Shown: positions 2,581 through 26,613 of the stretch, one piece after another | Position numbering within the stretch: position 1 is the stretch's first letter | Layout of the letters: each line of letters starts with the position of its first letter | Virus record (IMG/VR): IMGVR_UViG_2698536428_000017 | DNA from: a virus | Taxonomy: Duplodnaviria; Heunggongvirae; Uroviricota; Caudoviricetes | Direction: 5' to 3' (one strand) | Length of the DNA stretch: 40,320 nt | The notes under the pieces: generated by a model | What the model saw: only the letters and a program-made list of their open reading frames with translations | Databases searched by the model: none | Told to the model about the DNA's origin: nothing | Program-made: the position numbers and the translations under genes

Positions 2581-3332
2581 CAGTTTACCCCGTCGGTACT
2601 GCTTCCACCACGCTGAACACCACCATGAGTGTGTGTATCATCGATTGGCTTGCCATTAGCCTTCACGCTCCCCAAAAACTCAACAGCACCAGTGATTTTT
2701 GAAGCCACACCAGAAACCACAGACCCCACCATGCCCCCCATCCAGGTTAACAGGCCATGAATGGTTACTTTCTCAGAAAAATCAGCCAGAGGGGCAACCA
2801 CATCAAGACCACCTGGAGCGACAATTTTAATTTTCCTGGTATCAGGATTAAGCTCAAAATAGGTGCTGCCGTCATCACTACGCAACTGTGTGGCACTGGT
2901 ATTAATACCGCTAATCTTCCTTGCCTGCGACTGGGGACCGACAATACAAAACGCATCCGATAAATCATGCATTCTGTCATCGACCGACTCCTGTATCCCG
3001 CCACTCTGCCACCAGAAATCAATACAACGATCGGCAAAAATCACCAAACATTCATCACCGGCTTTAACTGGGAACGTTAGCGTACATCCTCCGCCGCGCG
3101 GGAATACCACTGGCACATCCACCAGCAATGGGTAATTTTTGGTAATGCGGTTGCCGTCATTATCCTTTTCAACCGAACGGATAGCAGGCTGCACAACTGC
3201 CGTCACCGCATCAGGATCGAATGACTGAATAATGCCAGGCAAGGCGACACGGATCTGGTTCTTTGTTGTTTCCCGTTCAGATTTGAATGTTTCGGCAAGG
3301 TCGCCGCTGCGGGTCTGGTCAGATACTGCCAT
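2580..3332 (-). CDS. Baseplate central spike / assembly protein V-like
   Basis: 250 aa; segment GDECLVIFADRCIDFWW resembles the OB-fold region of gpV/gp45-type spikes; Gly-rich C-terminus; GGAG RBS upstream of ATG at 3332. Confidence 0.5.
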   Translation of the reverse strand: MAVSDQTRSGDLAETFKSERETTKNQIRVALPGIIQSFDPDAVTAVVQPAIRSVEKDNDGNRITKNYPLLVDVPVVFPRGGGCTLTFPVKAGDECLVIFADRCIDFWWQSGGIQESVDDRMHDLSDAFCIVGPQSQARKISGINTSATQLRSDDGSTYFELNPDTRKIKIVAPGGLDVVAPLADFSEKVTIHGLLTWMGGMVGSVVSGVASKITGAVEFLGSVKANGKPIDDTHTHGGVQRGGSSTDGVN

Positions 3333-3350
3333 TTAGTAGGCTCCAGAAAG

Positions 3351-3374
3351 CAAAAAACCCGCCGAAGCGGGTTT
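3351..3374 (-). terminator. Rho-independent terminator after the two-gene moron
   Basis: Minus-strand RNA reads CCCGC-UUCG-GCGGG followed by U6; the plus strand has no U-tract after the hairpin, so it is unidirectional. Confidence 0.6.
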
Positions 3375-3391
3375 GATAACGTTAATTTTAT

Positions 3392-3787
3392 TCATGAAAC
3401 TCTAGCAGACTTTAGCTGTTCCCAGCGCTCAAAATAGAGTTCAGCAGCCTCGATTGCATCCTGTCCCATCTCTTTCGAAACAGTCACATTCGTCAGATCA
3501 TAGTCAGCTTCATTTCTAGCATCCCGCCACTGGCGAAGTACGAAAGCTAGGGATTTCAGTGTATTTGTCGGGTATGGCTCTGATTTGCACTCTGAGGGCG
3601 TTGACATATAACCCACAGTATTTTTGTGATGCTCATGGGTAAAATGCGGTATGGCAGTAAGTGAGCTAATAGACTCATGTAACATACTGTAATACGCCCT
3701 TGAGATAGCGCTTCGAAATCCACTCTCAATATTTTCAGACAGACATAATCGAGCGGTATCGAGAATCTGATTGCTAGTTACCGACAT
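3392..3787 (-). CDS. Hypothetical protein (moron gene 2), 131 aa
   Basis: ATG start, overlaps upstream ORF by 14 nt; about 40% GC against about 52% in flanking tail genes; no family recognised. Confidence 0.6.
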   Translation of the reverse strand: MSVTSNQILDTARLCLSENIESGFRSAISRAYYSMLHESISSLTAIPHFTHEHHKNTVGYMSTPSECKSEPYPTNTLKSLAFVLRQWRDARNEADYDLTNVTVSKEMGQDAIEAAELYFERWEQLKSARVS

Positions 3788-4547
3788 GGTAGCTCACCCC
3801 CGTATGCAACTGACGCGGAGAGGTAAATCTAGCTAACAGGGAACAATCATCCAGTTTAGATTCAGCGCAGACTCTATCAGCCAAGTCGAAGTTCATTTTG
3901 GCAATAGTTTTAGGCTCAAGATTTTTAATATCAACAACATAGCAACCGCTTCCACTAAGCTGAACGAAACCTGTCGTAGCCTTGTATTCACTTAGCAAGC
4001 CCCAGATTATGGATGCTAAGGTCTGGAACTGTTCCTTCGAGCACTGTGTGGCGCTATAGAAATTATCCATTTCTGCAAGGAGTTCTTCTTTGTGCTTCAT
4101 AGCATTACTCCTGCCTTCTGATTCAGAAAGAAGCTTAATGTGCTCTTCCATATAAAATTTTAACTGTTCACGCTCGCCGCAACGGTACGCCCAACTGTAT
4201 GCGTTGTGACTAAAGAGTTTTGTCCGATACTTCTTTGCCAGCGGGACATAGACATCCTTGAGTTCATTATAGCTAAATGTATTAATTAAAATGTGATGAT
4301 AGTGCATTGCCAACGTTACATCGTTTACTTCTAGGCTTATCCTGAGATAACGTAACGCGCTTTCAATCTTTCCGGTTATTGCATCCAGATAAGATAGTGC
4401 AATGTTGGTAGCAGGCGTTGGAGAGACAGAAAGTTCCTCTCGAATTTTCTTTTCAGTGAAGGGATCTAAACTTTCCCTATCCAATAGAAGCGCATTGAAT
4501 TGTTCAATATATTTTTGCGCTTTTTCTAATGGGATGCCTGCCGCCAT
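3774..4547 (-). CDS. Hypothetical protein (moron gene 1), 257 aa
   Basis: ATG at 4547..4545; low GC; no recognisable catalytic motif; inserted between baseplate hub and spike genes. Confidence 0.6.
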   Translation of the reverse strand: MAAGIPLEKAQKYIEQFNALLLDRESLDPFTEKKIREELSVSPTPATNIALSYLDAITGKIESALRYLRISLEVNDVTLAMHYHHILINTFSYNELKDVYVPLAKKYRTKLFSHNAYSWAYRCGEREQLKFYMEEHIKLLSESEGRSNAMKHKEELLAEMDNFYSATQCSKEQFQTLASIIWGLLSEYKATTGFVQLSGSGCYVVDIKNLEPKTIAKMNFDLADRVCAESKLDDCSLLARFTSPRQLHTGVSYHVGN

Positions 4548-4576
4548 GGATTATTTCTCTTACTAAAGGGATTGTG

Positions 4577-4605
4577 ATTGTGAACTTTGAACAATATCTC
4601 GTCAA
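4577..4605 (-). promoter_or_regulatory. Candidate sigma70 promoter for the moron pair
   Basis: Minus strand TTGACG (4605..4600), 17 nt spacer, CACAAT (4582..4577), about 30 nt upstream of the 257-aa start; -10 match is weak. Confidence 0.3.
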
Positions 4606-21450: not shown

Positions 21451-21792
21451 TTACTCCTTAGAGCCACCAAACTTGTTACCGATTACTCGCATTGCAGCCC
21501 CACGAATAGCATCCACACCGATCAGCCCAACACCACCACCAATGGCAACAGAAAGCGATTTAGGCCATCCAACATACTCAAGAGCGGATGCAAAGGTCAG
21601 CGTCAGAGCACCACAGAGCAAAATCTCAAGCGTTTTTCGTTTCCAGCCGCCGCCACCGCCAAAATAGGCAATGCGCAAGCCAGCCATAACAATTGACATA
21701 ACCACTGCGCCCAACGGCGTATCTCCACGCCACCAACTTTGTAAGAGTTCCAGTAAGTCAGGCCAGGAATGAGGAGCATTGTGCATTTTCAT
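21451..21792 (-). CDS. Holin, lambda S-like with dual-start MKM motif
   Basis: Start placed at ATG 21792 (MKMHNAP...) preceded by GGAGGTG; track ORF start at 21810 lies inside the RBS; hydrophobic helices. Confidence 0.6.
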   Translation of the reverse strand: MKMHNAPHSWPDLLELLQSWWRGDTPLGAVVMSIVMAGLRIAYFGGGGGWKRKTLEILLCGALTLTFASALEYVGWPKSLSVAIGGGVGLIGVDAIRGAAMRVIGNKFGGSKE

Positions 21793-21893
21793 ACTTCCCA
21801 CCTCCGCCATTACGGGGTGTTGTTGAAAGGCGGGCCCTGCGTATACGCCCGTAGGATTGGGTTATGAGCCGTCCTTCGGTGGGCCCTGAATAC

Positions 21894-21916
21894 AAAAAAA
21901 GTTCGCCATAGCGAAC
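21894..21916 (-). terminator. tR'-like intrinsic terminator between Q and the lysis genes
   Basis: Hairpin GTTCGC-CATA-GCGAAC (21901..21916) followed on the minus strand by U7 (21900..21894). Confidence 0.65.
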
Positions 21917-22195
21917 CTTGTTAAATTTGTTAAAAAAGGAAGTTATTTAACATAATGTATGTTATAGGAACCACACGATCACCGCTCGCAATAGATTTGC
22001 GATGAAAGGCCTATTTAATCAACTTAAGTGGTCCAGAATGACGAAATTCGAGTGAATAAGAGGTGCATAAAAAAGGGCAAAAACTGCATAGCGTTTTTTC
22101 GCGACGAAAACCCTGTTTTATTAACTTTTACTGAGAATAGAGCATTAAAAAAGCCCCAATGATTTGGAGCTCTTCGTTGAGGTCAGAAATTCAAC
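21917..22195 (-). promoter_or_regulatory. Expected late promoter and Q-utilisation region (not resolved)
   Basis: Inferred from lambdoid architecture: about 280 bp non-coding between Q stop and the terminator; no convincing -35/-10 pair found by eye. Confidence 0.3.
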
Positions 22196-22630
22196 TCATA
22201 CCAGCGTAGCGCAGTTTTTGCGTAGCGCACTAATACTTTTTTCATCCCTTTGAATTTCGACCTCAGGATCCATCTGAAGGCTCACACCCAGCATGCAGAG
22301 ACACCCCTCAATGAATCCCTCTGCTACCTGCAACTGCTGGCGGATAAATCCTTCAGAACAGCGACGCCGCCGCCCTATCTCACGTTTGCTTAACCCGTAG
22401 ACGTAGTACAGCATAATGACGTCCAGTTCCTCAGGCTTACGGACCTGCTGCAGCCGACAGACGCAAGCATCGATAATCAGGCCATCGTCGTCACAGCAAC
22501 TCAGCCTGCCAGGCGAGCTGCTGACTACCAGCCCTTTAAATCCCGTCGCTATTGGAGCCCAGCTCACTGTGGTGTTGCTATCGGCAGCCCATCCACCCCA
22601 GCGCTCTAAAACCTGTTGAATATTACGCAT
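22196..22630 (-). CDS. Late antiterminator Q (QuuD-like)
   Basis: 144 aa; N-terminus MRNIQQVLERWGGWAA...GFKGL...CCDDD matches recalled QuuD-type Q proteins of E. coli lambdoid prophages. Confidence 0.75.
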   Translation of the reverse strand: MRNIQQVLERWGGWAADSNTTVSWAPIATGFKGLVVSSSPGRLSCCDDDGLIIDACVCRLQQVRKPEELDVIMLYYVYGLSKREIGRRRRCSEGFIRQQLQVAEGFIEGCLCMLGVSLQMDPEVEIQRDEKSISALRKNCATLV

Positions 22631-22694
22631 AGCTCTGACCTCTACGTTTTGCTACGAAAAATTTTTCTGAGAACTACGTCTGTTTATCCGTGGG

Positions 22695-22703
22695 TGTGGA
22701 TAA
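22695..22703 (-). promoter_or_regulatory. DnaA box (TTATCCACA)
   Basis: Plus strand TGTGGATAA is the reverse complement of the DnaA consensus; sits inside inverted repeat TTATCC-N8-GGATAA next to the iterons. Confidence 0.5.
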
Positions 22704-22755
22704 CGCAGTTCCGATCCGCATATTGCATGTATCAACATGCAAAAAGTTGCTAATT

Positions 22756-22948
22756 CGGAGTGGAACCACCTGCCCCCACCTGGAACCACCTTTTCCTAAC
22801 CTTTCCCTCAATCGACTTATATATATATGGGGTTTCTAGTAGAAAGGCGGTTCCAGTGGTTCCAGTAGTTCCGCCCCGCTTGCCACAAGGTCTGCAAGGT
22901 GGAACCACCTTCTCTTCTAGGTGGTTCCGCGTGGTTCCAGCGGTTCCC
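22756..22948. repeat. Iteron array of replication origin (core GGAACC / GGTTCC)
   Basis: TGGAACCACC at 22761 and 22781; GGTGGAACCACC at 22898; reverse copies at 22849, 22858, 22867 (9 bp period) and 22920, 22931, 22941 (10 bp period); AT-rich TTATATATATAT at 22818..22829. Confidence 0.6.
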
Positions 22949-25103
22949 AAACCTTGCATTTTTTCCCCCCAATTCGCCTTTGGGCACGCTTATACCCGCA
23001 ATTTTGCAAAACATTACTAATTCGCATTTCTTCGCGTTTTCCGATGCGGTCAGGATTTAGCCCAATCGCATCACGCAAAACATCACTTGCGCGTAAAAAT
23101 TCGCAATTTCGCGGAAGTTCATTAGTCATCAGGTCGGGCGTGTCGAGCCATTTCTCTACCGTTTCAAGCCAAGCATCCTTGATGGTGTACTGTTCATGGA
23201 CACTCGCTGCCAGTTGTTCAGCCTCACGGAACTGGATACCCCCCAGACGCTGAAACACCTCACGAGCCTCAGCCCAAAGTAAAAGGAGATCTCTTTTTAT
23301 CGCTTTCACGTCGACTTTCGACACTTCCACGGGGAGCCAGCGACGGTTACCAGTCTTGTCCGCAAGGAATTCGTCCTCATTAGTGGTACCAACGAACACC
23401 AGGCGACGAGGAAACTGGGTGGCGAACTCCCGGTATTTCGGGATCCAGTTTTCGTGAGTACGCGTCACAAACGCTTTGATTGACTCCAGCTCTTTGGTAT
23501 TAAGTCCGCGCAGTTCACCAATCTCTGCCACCAGCCGACCACGCATTTTTCGAGCGAGATCATCGTCTTTTTCGGCAAAAGAGATTTCAGTAAAAAACGC
23601 AGGATCAGGGCTCAGTGCCTCCACTCCGGAAGACTTACCGCAGCCCTGCGGACCAACGAGGATCGGCACCATATCCGCTTTGATGCCTGGCTCCAGTACT
23701 CGCCCCGCCAACGCGGTCCACATGTACATAGACACCGCACGGGTATAAGGCGTGTCGGCGGTACCGAAGTGCGTATGGTAGAAACATTCGATGCGCGGCA
23801 CGCCATCCCACTCCAGTCCGTTCAGCCAGGTGATCGCTGAATCGAATGGTTGTTCATCGGCTGCAAGTAACACCACATCGCGAATAAGTTCACGGCCAAC
23901 AGGTTTAAATCCCCGCTTTTCCATCGTGATGCGCAGGCGCGCATAATCCGCATCGGTGAATGCCCGCCATTGTCCGGATCCTGCCGGGGCAAACATGATT
24001 TCGTCGCGGAACTGGTCAAAGCGAATATCGATGTCCACAAAATCAGAGCGTACTACTGCTTTGGCTGCATTGCTGATGGTTGCCTCGATACGCCCCCATT
24101 TATCACGCTCGAAAGCAGGCAGCGGTAAAGGTTCCGCCACTTCGATGCTGGTCAGATCTTCGAAATCGTCGTTGCGGATCCCGATGGCATTCAGGAAATC
24201 TCCGTCATCACGATGCGCGCAACTGGCATGCAGGCATTTAAAATGCCCCTGCTCAAAGCCTGCGGTTCCCGCAGGAAAATAAACTGTGCTTGTTGGATCG
24301 CCTCCGCTACTGTGGCCGTCTTCAAACGGACAGCGGATATATCGTTCACCGTTTGCGCCATCCAGCAGCGTCCAGCCATTGGCATCAAGATATTCAGCTG
24401 TATCATCCGTCGCGCCGGGCGTGAATGCTGAACGGTCGCGCATCTTCGTGTTGCCCGCTTCGGTGGTTACCGACACAGGGAGTTGTTCAGCCAGGCGCTG
24501 CCACAGCGTTTCAAGCTGCTCACCTGTAATAGCCGGAGGTTCATCCGGCAAACCACCGTCCCATTCAATACGCGCGCCGCTGCTGTGCGTACCACAGGCA
24601 ACGAACTGCTGCCCGTTCGCCAGCAACTCGATAATGCCCATATCCCCCGCCAGGCGATGGATACGCTTACGGAAATCACCATCAACGGCCAGCAGATACA
24701 GACACTTATTACTGTTTGCTCGCCAGCGTCGCGGCGGCGACTCACCCAGAAGTTGCACAAGTGTTTTGCGAATATCTGCCTGAATGTCTTCATCTTCGCT
24801 ATCGCAGTCCAGCGCCAGCCAGCCATGGCCTGTACGCACGCAGATGCCATAATCCGGTTCATTCGACCAGCGGGCAAAATCATGCTCAGTAACAACATGC
24901 CCGGTCCATTGAGCAATACCTGTGACCTGGCGGTCCCGGTTATAGCGACTCGGCGTCTTACCCAACGCTTTCAATTTACTATCAGGGGATATGGTCGCAC
25001 TGGGGTTACATACAACTGGGAGAAGATGAGCAGTCCGCCCCAATACCAGGTCGAAATGAAACCACTCATCAGGCGTAGCTCCCCATGGTTTGCTATCGGA
25101 CAT
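22917..25103 (-). CDS. Primase-helicase (N-terminal primase-polymerase-like domain, C-terminal P-loop NTPase)
   Basis: 728 aa; Walker A in ILVGPQGCGKSSG; domain order resembles P4 alpha / VirE-type replication proteins; last 10 codons overlap the iterons. Confidence 0.75.
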   Translation of the reverse strand: MSDSKPWGATPDEWFHFDLVLGRTAHLLPVVCNPSATISPDSKLKALGKTPSRYNRDRQVTGIAQWTGHVVTEHDFARWSNEPDYGICVRTGHGWLALDCDSEDEDIQADIRKTLVQLLGESPPRRWRANSNKCLYLLAVDGDFRKRIHRLAGDMGIIELLANGQQFVACGTHSSGARIEWDGGLPDEPPAITGEQLETLWQRLAEQLPVSVTTEAGNTKMRDRSAFTPGATDDTAEYLDANGWTLLDGANGERYIRCPFEDGHSSGGDPTSTVYFPAGTAGFEQGHFKCLHASCAHRDDGDFLNAIGIRNDDFEDLTSIEVAEPLPLPAFERDKWGRIEATISNAAKAVVRSDFVDIDIRFDQFRDEIMFAPAGSGQWRAFTDADYARLRITMEKRGFKPVGRELIRDVVLLAADEQPFDSAITWLNGLEWDGVPRIECFYHTHFGTADTPYTRAVSMYMWTALAGRVLEPGIKADMVPILVGPQGCGKSSGVEALSPDPAFFTEISFAEKDDDLARKMRGRLVAEIGELRGLNTKELESIKAFVTRTHENWIPKYREFATQFPRRLVFVGTTNEDEFLADKTGNRRWLPVEVSKVDVKAIKRDLLLLWAEAREVFQRLGGIQFREAEQLAASVHEQYTIKDAWLETVEKWLDTPDLMTNELPRNCEFLRASDVLRDAIGLNPDRIGKREEMRISNVLQNCGYKRAQRRIGGKKCKVWEPLEPRGTT

Positions 25104-25106
25104 GGG

Positions 25107-25307
25107 TTACACCTTTTGTCTAGCTGTCACTTCCTGAAAAAGTTTTTCTATCGCACGTACTGTAGAAAAGCGAGGGTCAGAATGAACCCCGGTAAGAAGC
25201 CGACTAATAGAAGACTGCTTCACGCCTGCAATTTCGGCAATTTGGTTTTGGGTATACCCTGAATCAATCAAGCTTTTGACCATCTCTTGTGGTGTTAGTC
25301 CGGACAT
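25107..25307 (-). CDS. Cro-like HTH regulator
   Basis: 66 aa; HTH (YTQNQIAEIAGVKQSSISRLLTG); GGAGA RBS; divergent from repressor and first gene of the leftward operon. Confidence 0.6.
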   Translation of the reverse strand: MSGLTPQEMVKSLIDSGYTQNQIAEIAGVKQSSISRLLTGVHSDPRFSTVRAIEKLFQEVTARQKV

Positions 25308-25448
25308 ATTTAAGTCTCCACTTTCGTCTATAGCGCAAATTTATACGAAAACGGATTACTCAGCAATACAGCAATTCTATGTCATCCTAGATTAAAATAT
25401 CCGATAACGCATAATCACCGTCCCTGTATACAACATGGATGAATCCAA
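25308..25448. promoter_or_regulatory. Immunity switch region with divergent promoters and operators
   Basis: 141 bp between divergent Cro-like and CI-like genes; candidate leftward -10 TATAAA (25345..25340); motifs ATAGCGCAAAT and ATAACGCATAAT; operators not resolved. Confidence 0.45.
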
Positions 25449-26123
25449 ATGATTGATACTACCGATATCCTTTCTCAAAACATCAAGTACCTGATGGACA
25501 AAGCCAAGATAAGCTCGATAACTGAGCTGGCACGTCGGTTACAGCTGAACCAACCAACGCTACACAGGCTGGTATCAGGAGAGGTGAAAGATCCGAAATA
25601 CGCAACGTTAAAGCAGATCGCCGACTACTTCCACGTGTCACCAATAGACTTGGCAGAAAGGAGCCTTCAAGAAATGGAGAAAGAGGACGCGACAGGTATA
25701 AAAACGTATATTTCTCTTAGGTTTAATAAAGTACCTGTTTTGGGAAACACTCAGCTAGGCGTTGGAGGACTTTGGAGCGACACCCAATATTCAGTAGGTA
25801 GCAGTGATGGTTTCATATACTGGCCGACAAAGGATGAAGATGCATACGCCCTGAAATGTGTTGGTGATTCAATGATGCCTAGAATCAAAGAGGGGGAGTT
25901 CGTAATCGTCGAACCCAACCACGACTACACTCCTGGTGATGAAGTACTTGTGGTTACCCGGGAAGGTGAGGTCATGGTTAAAACCTTCTTGTTCGAACGC
26001 GATGGCCTGTTCCATCTAATGTCTGTAAATGAAGATCATCCACCAGTCAGAGTACCACGCGAAAACATTGAAAAAATCCATTACGTGGCGGGGATCGCCA
26101 AATCCGCGCTACGTATGTACTAA
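25449..26123 (+). CDS. CI-like repressor (N-terminal HTH, C-terminal S24 LexA-like peptidase)
   Basis: 224 aa; HTH region (SITELARRLQLNQPTLHRLVSG); S24 catalytic motifs GDSM and downstream Lys (VMVKTF). Confidence 0.8.
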   Translation: MIDTTDILSQNIKYLMDKAKISSITELARRLQLNQPTLHRLVSGEVKDPKYATLKQIADYFHVSPIDLAERSLQEMEKEDATGIKTYISLRFNKVPVLGNTQLGVGGLWSDTQYSVGSSDGFIYWPTKDEDAYALKCVGDSMMPRIKEGEFVIVEPNHDYTPGDEVLVVTREGEVMVKTFLFERDGLFHLMSVNEDHPPVRVPRENIEKIHYVAGIAKSALRMY

Positions 26124-26153
26124 CCTTTACAGTCTGATAACTTACTTCTGATC

Positions 26154-26185
26154 AAACCGCTCTCCACAAGGGCGGTTTTCTTATT
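26154..26185 (+). terminator. Candidate terminator after the repressor gene
   Basis: AAACCGC...GCGGTTT 7-bp stem followed by TTCTTATTT; the loop is long (11 nt), so weak. Confidence 0.35.
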
Positions 26186-26206
26186 TGCAAAATAATTCAT
26201 TTTCGT

Positions 26207-26235
26207 ATTGACACAAAATCCCATAACGCATATAA
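26207..26235 (+). promoter_or_regulatory. Near-consensus sigma70 promoter (TTGACA-17-TATAAA)
   Basis: TTGACA at 26207..26212, 17 nt spacer, TATAAA at 26230..26235; followed by palindrome CGCATAATTAATGCG at 26244..26258. Confidence 0.4.
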
Positions 26236-26429
26236 ATACGATATCGCATAATTAATGCGTTTTTTAATACTGGCTCTTTAACAAACTGAACCGCGTGACA
26301 GGTAAGCCGCAGTACTCCTGGCAAAACGAAATAGCACCCGATGGGATCGAGGTAAGCGCCGAGTCCGTATGCGTACGGTAAGCGTAGAGGACAACACCGC
26401 GACAAACTGATAAGTCACGCAAGTTGAAA

Positions 26430-26460
26430 CGCCCCGACGATGGGGCGCTTAGTTCCTTTT
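26430..26460. terminator. Hairpin CGCCCC-GACGAT-GGGGCG with U-rich flanks
   Basis: 6-bp GC stem; U-rich sequence on both strands; probably the ancestral terminator of the 174-aa gene, now separated from it by IS2. Confidence 0.4.
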
Positions 26461-26613
26461 GGGGTGGGGTGAAGATCAGTCCATTGAGTCAATCCGAAGT
26501 TCAGCATCTACCACTACACCACTAGACTGGCCCCCTGAATCTCCAGACAACCAGTATCACTTATTTAAGTGATAGTCTTAATACTAGTTTTTAGACTAGT
26601 CATTGGAGAACAG

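Follow-up and report, generated by a model that had tools for sequence, protein, structure and literature searches.

A putative iteron origin of the SaPI/PICI design at the 3' end of a primase-helicase gene in an Escherichia coli myovirus prophage

What is the function of the dense array of short repeats that straddles the 3' end of a primase-helicase gene in IMG/VR record IMGVR_UViG_2698536428_000017, a 40,320-nucleotide stretch of DNA that was analysed as a whole and is referred to here as the window? The window is a temperate Escherichia coli myovirus prophage, and a sequence-only reading had proposed that the repeats form an iteron-type replication origin that includes a DnaA box and is bound by the product of the adjacent gene, as with the P4 alpha protein. 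We put a probability of roughly 0.8 on the view that positions 22760-22947 are the phage's vegetative replication origin, read by its own initiator and built to the design known from Staphylococcus aureus pathogenicity islands (SaPIs) and phage-inducible chromosomal islands (PICIs), a judgement drawn from sequence comparison and analogy. The core of the earlier proposal, an iteron origin read by the adjacent primase-helicase, thus gains support from the layout of about 100 loci, from switching of the repeated word, from its covariation with a predicted wing of the protein and from homology to SaPI Rep, while the part concerning the DnaA box does not stand.

Over all 40,320 bases the hexamer GGTTCC/GGAACC has 17 exact matches, a total in line with chance, and yet 8 of the 17 fall within 22762-22947. 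On the plus strand GGAACC begins at 22762, 22782 and 22901, and GGTTCC at 22849, 22858, 22923, 22933 and 22942; a ninth, degenerate copy (AGTTCC) occupies 22867-22872. In 2000 block shuffles no 190-nt span held more than four matches, and the Poisson probability of at least eight per such span is 4e-14. The 8-mer GGAACCAC occurs seven times in the window as against 1.2 expected, with six of the seven inside the array in one 180-nt cluster. The actual repeat unit is longer than the hexamer, a 9-nt word close to GGAACCACC, and is spaced by 9 and 9 nt (22849/58/67), by 10 and 9 nt (22923/33/42) and by 20 nt (22762/82), the last with a degenerate copy midway. Relative to the stop codon of the primase-helicase gene (22917-22919, minus strand) the array extends from -31 to +155, and given the position of the stop, the three copies at 22920-22947 fall within the last 10 codons of the gene. 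The earlier description, of at least nine copies in both orientations, spaced by 9-10 or 20 bp around an AT-rich block and overlapping the last 10 codons, was accurate in every coordinate.

These gene-end copies, which we call cluster A (GGAACCGCT, GGAACCACG and GGAACCACC on the gene strand), have the same position in all full-length relatives. Directly past the stop codon lies an inverted iteron, AGGTGGAACCACCT, that is able to form a hairpin with the last in-gene copy, and this pairing survives two-sided changes in relatives. Cluster B consists of three tandem copies with a 9-nt period, oriented towards the AT core; cluster C is inverted relative to cluster B and has a 10-nt period, with GGAACCACC at 22762 and 22782 on either side of the degenerate GCCCCCACC at 22772, the middle copy being degenerate in most lineages. 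Between the two arms lies the block TTATATATATAT (22817-22828) of an alternating AT stretch (22817-22829), the presumed unwinding element, which forms part of a core that reads CTTTCTACTAGAAACCCC-(AT)n-AAGTCGATTGAGGGAAAGGTTAGGAAAAGG on the gene strand and is conserved at the DNA level across loci with different words.

The related loci comprised 22 from one-genome-per-species contigs, 6 obtained through exact protein look-up, 80 from viral contigs and those of the phages YeP4 and APSE-1, and the counts of words, wings and boxes given below refer to an analysed set of 98 loci, ranging from Enterobacterales to Burkholderiales. Every full-length locus, read on the gene strand, follows one common plan: two or three direct repeats lying in or spanning the stop codon, a single inverted copy 8-25 nt past them, a spacer, three tandem copies at a 9-nt period, a sequence-conserved core of the form CTTTYTACTARAAACCCC-(AT)6-8-AAGTCG...GGGAAAGGTTAGAAA, and finally three inverted copies at a 10-nt period, of which the middle one is usually degenerate. 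The same nine- to ten-site architecture around the AT core is found in the isolated phages YeP4 and APSE-1. It is the word that varies, by lineage and with at least 12 versions: GGAACCACC is shared by the window, Trabulsiella, Photorhabdus and others, other Enterobacterales carry GTAACCACC, GTATCCACC, GTTACCACC, GTAGCCACC, TAGACCACC, GTCCCCACC, GTCCCAACC, GTACCAACC, TAGACAACC or GTAACAACC, GTCACCAC is also among the lineage words, and further words occur in Orbaceae and Burkholderiales. A fixed geometry with a switching word is the expected look of sites for a protein of variable specificity. Since the downstream gene varies, with the antiterminator gene Q found there in only 33 of the 98 loci and the array present always, the array belongs with the helicase gene. 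On the same grounds a packaging site was dropped as an explanation, as the array accompanies the helicase gene regardless of what comes downstream, and 2.5 kb separate it from terS; small open reading frames across the spacer were dismissed as well, because the word changes at a kept position and there is no conserved reading frame.

The protein encoded by the gene has 728 residues and combines a Prim-Pol domain (residues 48-188; PF09250, E 5.8e-10 in a search of the N-terminal 330 residues) with a VapE-like superfamily 3 (SF3) helicase (residues 427-639; PF05272, E 2.4e-60), and it matches PHROGs 256 and 1156. The sole solved homolog detected by sequence is SaPI1 Rep (7PDS_A), at E 7.5e-34 over residues 393-657. 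The last ~90 residues matched no Pfam family. An AlphaFold2 model of this C-terminal domain, built with 39 homologs, consists of three helices followed by a beta-hairpin, with predicted local distance difference test (pLDDT) scores of 80-90; a Foldseek search with the model returned nothing significant (best E 0.034), the list being nearly all winged-helix domains. On the strength of the model, the C-terminal domain is likely a winged helix, with the hairpin as its wing. In a group of homologs that includes L010-L012, L019 and APSE-1 (our locus L112, NC_000935), only residues ~312-720 are common with the window protein, and the N-terminal parts that were scanned, those of L010 and of the APSE-1 protein, gave a weak PriCT_2 match and no Prim-Pol. 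As the N-terminal ~310 residues differ, the primase part has been swapped while the helicase, the C-terminal domain and the origin plan were kept. Between Prim-Pol and helicase the window protein has a Cys/His-rich stretch, RCPFEDGHS...GHFKCLHASCAHR (residues ~257-296, ~24215-24335), that is invariant in the family alignment and looks like a zinc-binding motif.

Which protein, then, reads the word? Proteins that are 92-94% identical overall bear many different C-terminal tails, and across the 98 loci the five residues that follow the conserved G713-K714 in the second strand of the predicted wing, K715-C-K-V-W719 in the window protein, sort with the word. In the part of the full result given here, wing K[CSR]K[VLI]W goes with GGAACCACC, LMKVW with GTTACCACC, QIRVW with TAGACCACC, QQR[VI]F with TAGACAACC, [MV][TV]RIF with GTACCAACC, KMRIF with GTCCCAACC and KQRIW with GTCCCCACC. 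Of 213 non-redundant pairs with the same pentapeptide, 206 also had the same word, and this was so even at 74% backbone identity; a backbone identity of at least 95%, on the other hand, was accompanied by the same word in only 16% of pairs, equal to the 70-80% identity class. Three blind predictions of the word from the wing (P0097, P0092 and P0042), made before the DNA was seen, were all correct. The link is not explained by coding overlap, as short-tail variants have their wing codons upstream of the first iteron. We also excluded CI and Cro as binders of the repeats: loci L026 and L027 have identical Cro proteins and 99.6% identical CI proteins, and their words differ. The word thus tracks the wing, and neither the remaining protein nor CI or Cro. 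Such covariation between word and residues implies sequence readout, and Rep and ori appear from these comparisons to be a matched, element-specific pair, APSE-1 being the one exception. A simpler code of one residue, in which W719 would go with CCACC and F or Y with CAACC, was true in 98 of 98 loci and failed in APSE-1, so that it can be regarded as a tendency only.

This arrangement closely resembles that of known satellite replicons. SaPI Reps are helicases that load themselves and double as initiators, by means of a C-terminal winged-helix domain that recognises 6-12 short iterons immediately 3' of rep; the SaPI ori has a central AT-rich region with at least two iterons per side in opposite directions, and in SaPI5 primase and Rep are fused (PMC9371898). 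A pri-rep-ori stretch from the E. coli PICI EcCICFT073 drives plasmid replication (PMC6092414). The window shares with these replicons (SaPI1 Rep, SaPI5 PriRep5, EcCICFT073) a homologous SF3 VapE-like helicase-initiator, fused to a primase as in PriRep5, a predicted C-terminal winged-helix-like domain, a putative origin directly 3' of the initiator gene, two opposed sets of short iterons around an AT-rich centre (clusters B and C, three copies each), and cognate Rep-ori specificities that vary between elements. The module in the window differs from them in being carried by a complete ~40-kb temperate myovirus and not by a satellite, in having a Prim-Pol-type primase and an extra group of iterons, followed by an inverted copy, over the last codons of the gene, and in a centre that is a sequence-conserved ~50-nt core and not merely AT-rich. 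At the level of sequence, and with the winged helix as a prediction, the window has every feature of a SaPI/PICI Rep-ori replicon, within a complete phage.

By analogy with these systems, the Prim-Pol/SF3-helicase protein would bind the 9-nt iterons (GGAACCACC) via its C-terminal winged helix, with much of the specificity held in the wing hairpin. Protomers on the convergent arrays, three copies per side, would form hexamers around the conserved AT core; the core would melt, the helicase would load itself, and the fused primase would lay the first primers as the origin fires, so that DnaA, DnaB and DnaC would be dispensable. The gene-end copies, three direct and one inverted, would serve as auxiliary binding sites and, in some relatives, as a terminator-like hairpin too. 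Several points weigh against this scheme. The case for origin function draws on analogy and covariation. The pair counts are inflated by loci of common descent, which are not independent. APSE-1 pairs the wing VCRVW with GTAACAACC, breaking the rule of W with CCACC; given this exception, the pentapeptide is a strong predictor and not the whole determinant. Finally, the inverted arms can also fold as a stem-loop, which would allow recognition of structure.

The last point leads to the alternative of an origin that is structure-specific, as in the Sulfolobus plasmid pRN1, in which the arms would extrude a stem-loop or cruciform at the AT core and the protein would assemble on that structure. The pRN1 ORF904 origin is a ~100-nt stem-loop 3' of the gene, variable in sequence and conserved in structure, with arms that vary yet stay complementary, and phage BIP-1 was noted to have a comparable stem-loop 3' of its replication gene (PMC4234260). 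The window protein has the domains of ORF904 in the same order (Prim-Pol, SF3 helicase and, as predicted here, winged helix), and in both systems the cis element follows closely on the 3' end of the gene, after a small terminator hairpin, which in the present family is terminator-like in relatives of the window. RNAalifold moreover finds 24 pairs, 12 of them changed on both sides, and the single-strand DNA fold has z = -4.2. However, the hosts belong to different domains of life and the likeness to ORF904 is one of domain order, and the pRN1 origin was reported to be a long stem-loop without iterons (PMC4234260), whereas each arm here consists of three tandem copies, a repetition that a stem has no need of, with a word that tracks protein residues, implying sequence readout. 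The unequal periods of 9 and 10 nt block full in-register pairing, only 10 + 4 pairs are predicted between the arms, and the compensatory changes are an expected by-product of iteron switching. We therefore consider structure-specific recognition quite improbable; the internal repetition of the arms, their unequal periods and their link to protein residues favour sequence readout, perhaps with a contribution from hairpin extrusion.

A different alternative, and the one part of the earlier proposal that failed on conservation, is a DnaA-dependent iteron origin of the plasmid type, in which the box at 22695-22703 would recruit DnaA and DnaB-DnaC. The box is certainly there: a perfect TTATCCACA, unique in the window, ~60 nt past the last iteron and enclosed by the inverted repeat TTATCC-N8-GGATAA, at exactly the place first given for it, and such a box is expected only ~0.002 times in the 286-nt spacer between the 728-aa gene and Q, assuming equal base frequencies. 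However, a perfect box is present in 20 of the 98 loci, and 19 of these 20 are near-identical alleles of the Q leader. In the sister allele of the leader the flanks are kept and the box reads TTACCCACG or TTATTCACG, and among the 65 loci without Q, 64 lack it and a single one has it. The box thus lies outside the conserved module, within one allele group and near a mosaic joint at 22655, and was rejected as an origin component. The protein brings a helicase and a primase of its own, and self-loading is the description given for this initiator family (PMC9371898); the box is therefore probably incidental, at most a lineage-specific accessory, and a DnaA-dependent origin seems to us highly improbable.

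The comparison with P4 alpha, which the sequence-only reading had drawn, proved to be an analogy. Alpha is likewise a single polypeptide with primase, SF3 helicase and an origin-binding C-terminal winged helix (predicted in our case), and its gene is directly followed on the 3' side by 8-nt repeats in both orientations (crr, 4291-4590 of NC_001609). Homology was rejected, with a BLASTP E of 0.68 and different Pfam domain sets: alpha has zinc ribbon, Toprim, D5_N and Pox_D5, and the only overlap is with DUF5906, which the helicase region of the window protein matches below threshold. In addition, P4 needs separate ori and crr, 4.5 kb apart, in contrast to the single cluster here, and its repeats are outside the coding sequence. 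The lambda ori offers another parallel: in this temperate phage, too, initiator-binding repeats lie by an AT-rich block in the early rightward operon and overlap the coding sequence of the initiator itself. However, lambda O is neither helicase nor primase and needs P and host DnaB, its iterons, 19-bp palindromes, lie mid-gene, and the window has no O or P homolog.

That the P4 repeats directly 3' of alpha are crr and not ori also speaks for a third alternative, in which the array would be regulatory, terminating or blocking early transcription into Q or autoregulating its gene, with replication starting elsewhere. The array does lie between the early operon and Q, and a consensus scan of the spacer (22631-22916) found neither promoter nor terminator, including no Q promoter; in some relatives, the gene-end inverted pair with a T run was flagged as terminator-like. 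However, the array is constant while Q is not, the copy in the window has no T run and was not called as a terminator, no second iteron cluster exists in the window, and an AT core between convergent arrays is the design proven functional in SaPI and PICI. Given the negative scan, a simple promoter or intrinsic terminator fails to explain the array, and we regard a purely regulatory role as very improbable. Beyond the origin itself, we entertain as unlikely a link in which occupancy of the array by the initiator, and its clearance when the origin fires, would gate Q and thereby couple late transcription to replication. This idea comes from the fact that early transcripts reach Q only through ten initiator sites and the gene-end hairpin; the missing consensus promoter of Q and the iteron-made terminator-like hairpin of relatives would favour it, and the presence of Q downstream in only a third of related loci weighs on it.

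The hairpin occurs in many relatives, among them locus L051 (3675-3704), where the last in-gene iteron, the inverted copy and TTTT make a terminator-like structure directly past the stop, with similar ones in L002, L023, L027 and L055; it parallels the P4 talpha terminator and the terminator after pRN1 orf904. The C-terminal tail EPLEPRGTT of the window protein (last 10 codons, 22920-22949) is itself translated iterons (GAACC giving E-P and ACCACC giving T-T) and is predicted to be disordered, and in short-tail relatives a TAA stop falls inside iteron 1 (G-TAA-CCACC), which accounts for the proteins falling into length classes from 718 to 760 aa. The 8-bp inverted repeat of the earlier description was found at the distal edge of the module as a palindrome, TTGCATGT-TGAT-ACATGCAA. 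Of the 98 loci, 58 have a TTGCR-N10-YGCAA element at the equivalent place, the background rate being 0.009 per 160 nt. Its counterparts lie ~+150 to +260 past the stop codon in three main versions with 4-8-bp arms, usually after a T run, and the palindrome may serve as a regulator site, form a hairpin or signal priming.

The prophage family is common, and its origin would hereby be located. The origin DNA (22745-22916) is present in 103 complete E. coli genomes, chromosomal in all and annotated in none; 55 of the 103 have the full GGAACCACC version, and the remainder match the core only. As matches are limited to the core, these latter genomes carry swapped iterons on a similar gene backbone. 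The origin likewise lacks annotation in RefSeq E. coli IAI1 and in phage YeP4. The range of the family takes in about 100 of 5426 complete E. coli genomes, many other Enterobacterales and the aphid-symbiont phage APSE-1, and the family bears on the provenance of satellite replicons and on possible replication cross-talk between phages and satellites. Two family members reside together in Xenorhabdus yunnanensis XENO-10 (L010 and L011) and in IMG taxon 2837389702 (L081 and L082), and in both cases they differ in wing and in iteron word, as would be expected if cross-talk in replication were avoided. Our literature searches found no description of an origin for this prophage family; the kind of replicon is already known, and, as far as the searchable literature goes, neither its occurrence in true phages nor the panel of 12 or more specificities has been described. 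These specificities, matched between initiator and iteron and carried on nearly identical protein backbones, form a natural experimental panel, suited to the study of how winged-helix wings read DNA and to the building of orthogonal replicons.

The features of the locus are collected in Table 1. Terminase, portal, sheath, baseplate and lysis genes make the window a complete ~40-kb phage, so that it does not fit the description of a PICI, a small helper-dependent satellite island without virion genes. The stretch 22100-25200 is 100% identical to NZ_AP045181, and at least 80% of it is present in 101 of 5426 complete E. coli genomes, chromosomal every time. The isolated myoviruses vB_EcoM-611R5 and 606R2 share 97% identity with the structural half (positions 1-22655), and this match stops at 22655, ~25 nt upstream of Q, at a mosaic joint between late and replication modules. 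Because phage similarity ends there, the replication module is a separate mosaic unit.

Table 1. Features at and around the putative origin (positions in the window)
Feature	Position	Strand	Remarks
Antiterminator Q gene	22196..22630	-	PF06530, E 5.8e-50; next downstream of the primase-helicase gene
Perfect DnaA box TTATCCACA	22695..22703	-	in Q leader; only perfect box in the window
Palindrome TTGCATGT-TGAT-ACATGCAA	22723..22742	.	arms 22723-30 and 22735-42; distal edge of module
Iteron cluster C	22762..22790	+	GGAACCACC at 22762 and 22782, degenerate GCCCCCACC at 22772
Conserved core incl. AT block	22796..22845	.	DNA-level conservation across loci with different words
Iteron cluster B	22846..22872	-	three tandem copies, 9-nt period, oriented towards AT core
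Inverted iteron AGGTGGAACCACCT	22897..22910	+	directly past stop codon
Primase-helicase (replication initiator) gene	22917..25103	-	728 aa; PF05272, PF09250, 7PDS_A
Iteron cluster A	22920..22947	-	three direct copies, GGAACCGCT, GGAACCACG, GGAACCACC (gene strand)
C-terminal domain coding region	22941..23186	-	residues ~640-721
Predicted wing beta-hairpin	22941-22994	-	residues 704-721
Cro-like helix-turn-helix gene	25107-25307	-	
S24 CI-like repressor	25449-26123	+	divergent from Cro-like gene

Past Q the minus strand continues with holin, endolysin, Rz and terS. Two scans of the region were negative: Rfam gave no match in 22100-23200 at E up to 1, and GC skew showed no informative switch over 21500-26500. 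In APSE-1 the same origin plan, with GTAACAACC repeats, lies at 3300-3620, with further copies downstream, and an annotated hypothetical gene, 'P4' (3445-3666), sits on the origin core; it is probably not a real gene. The Q leader of the window (22631-22680) contains three ACGTAG motifs and an 18-nt imperfect inverted repeat at 22644-22679. The seventh GGAACCAC of the window stands alone at 21967-21974, within chance expectation, in an AT-rich, low-GC gap between Q and holin (21811-22195) that is presumably the late promoter region.

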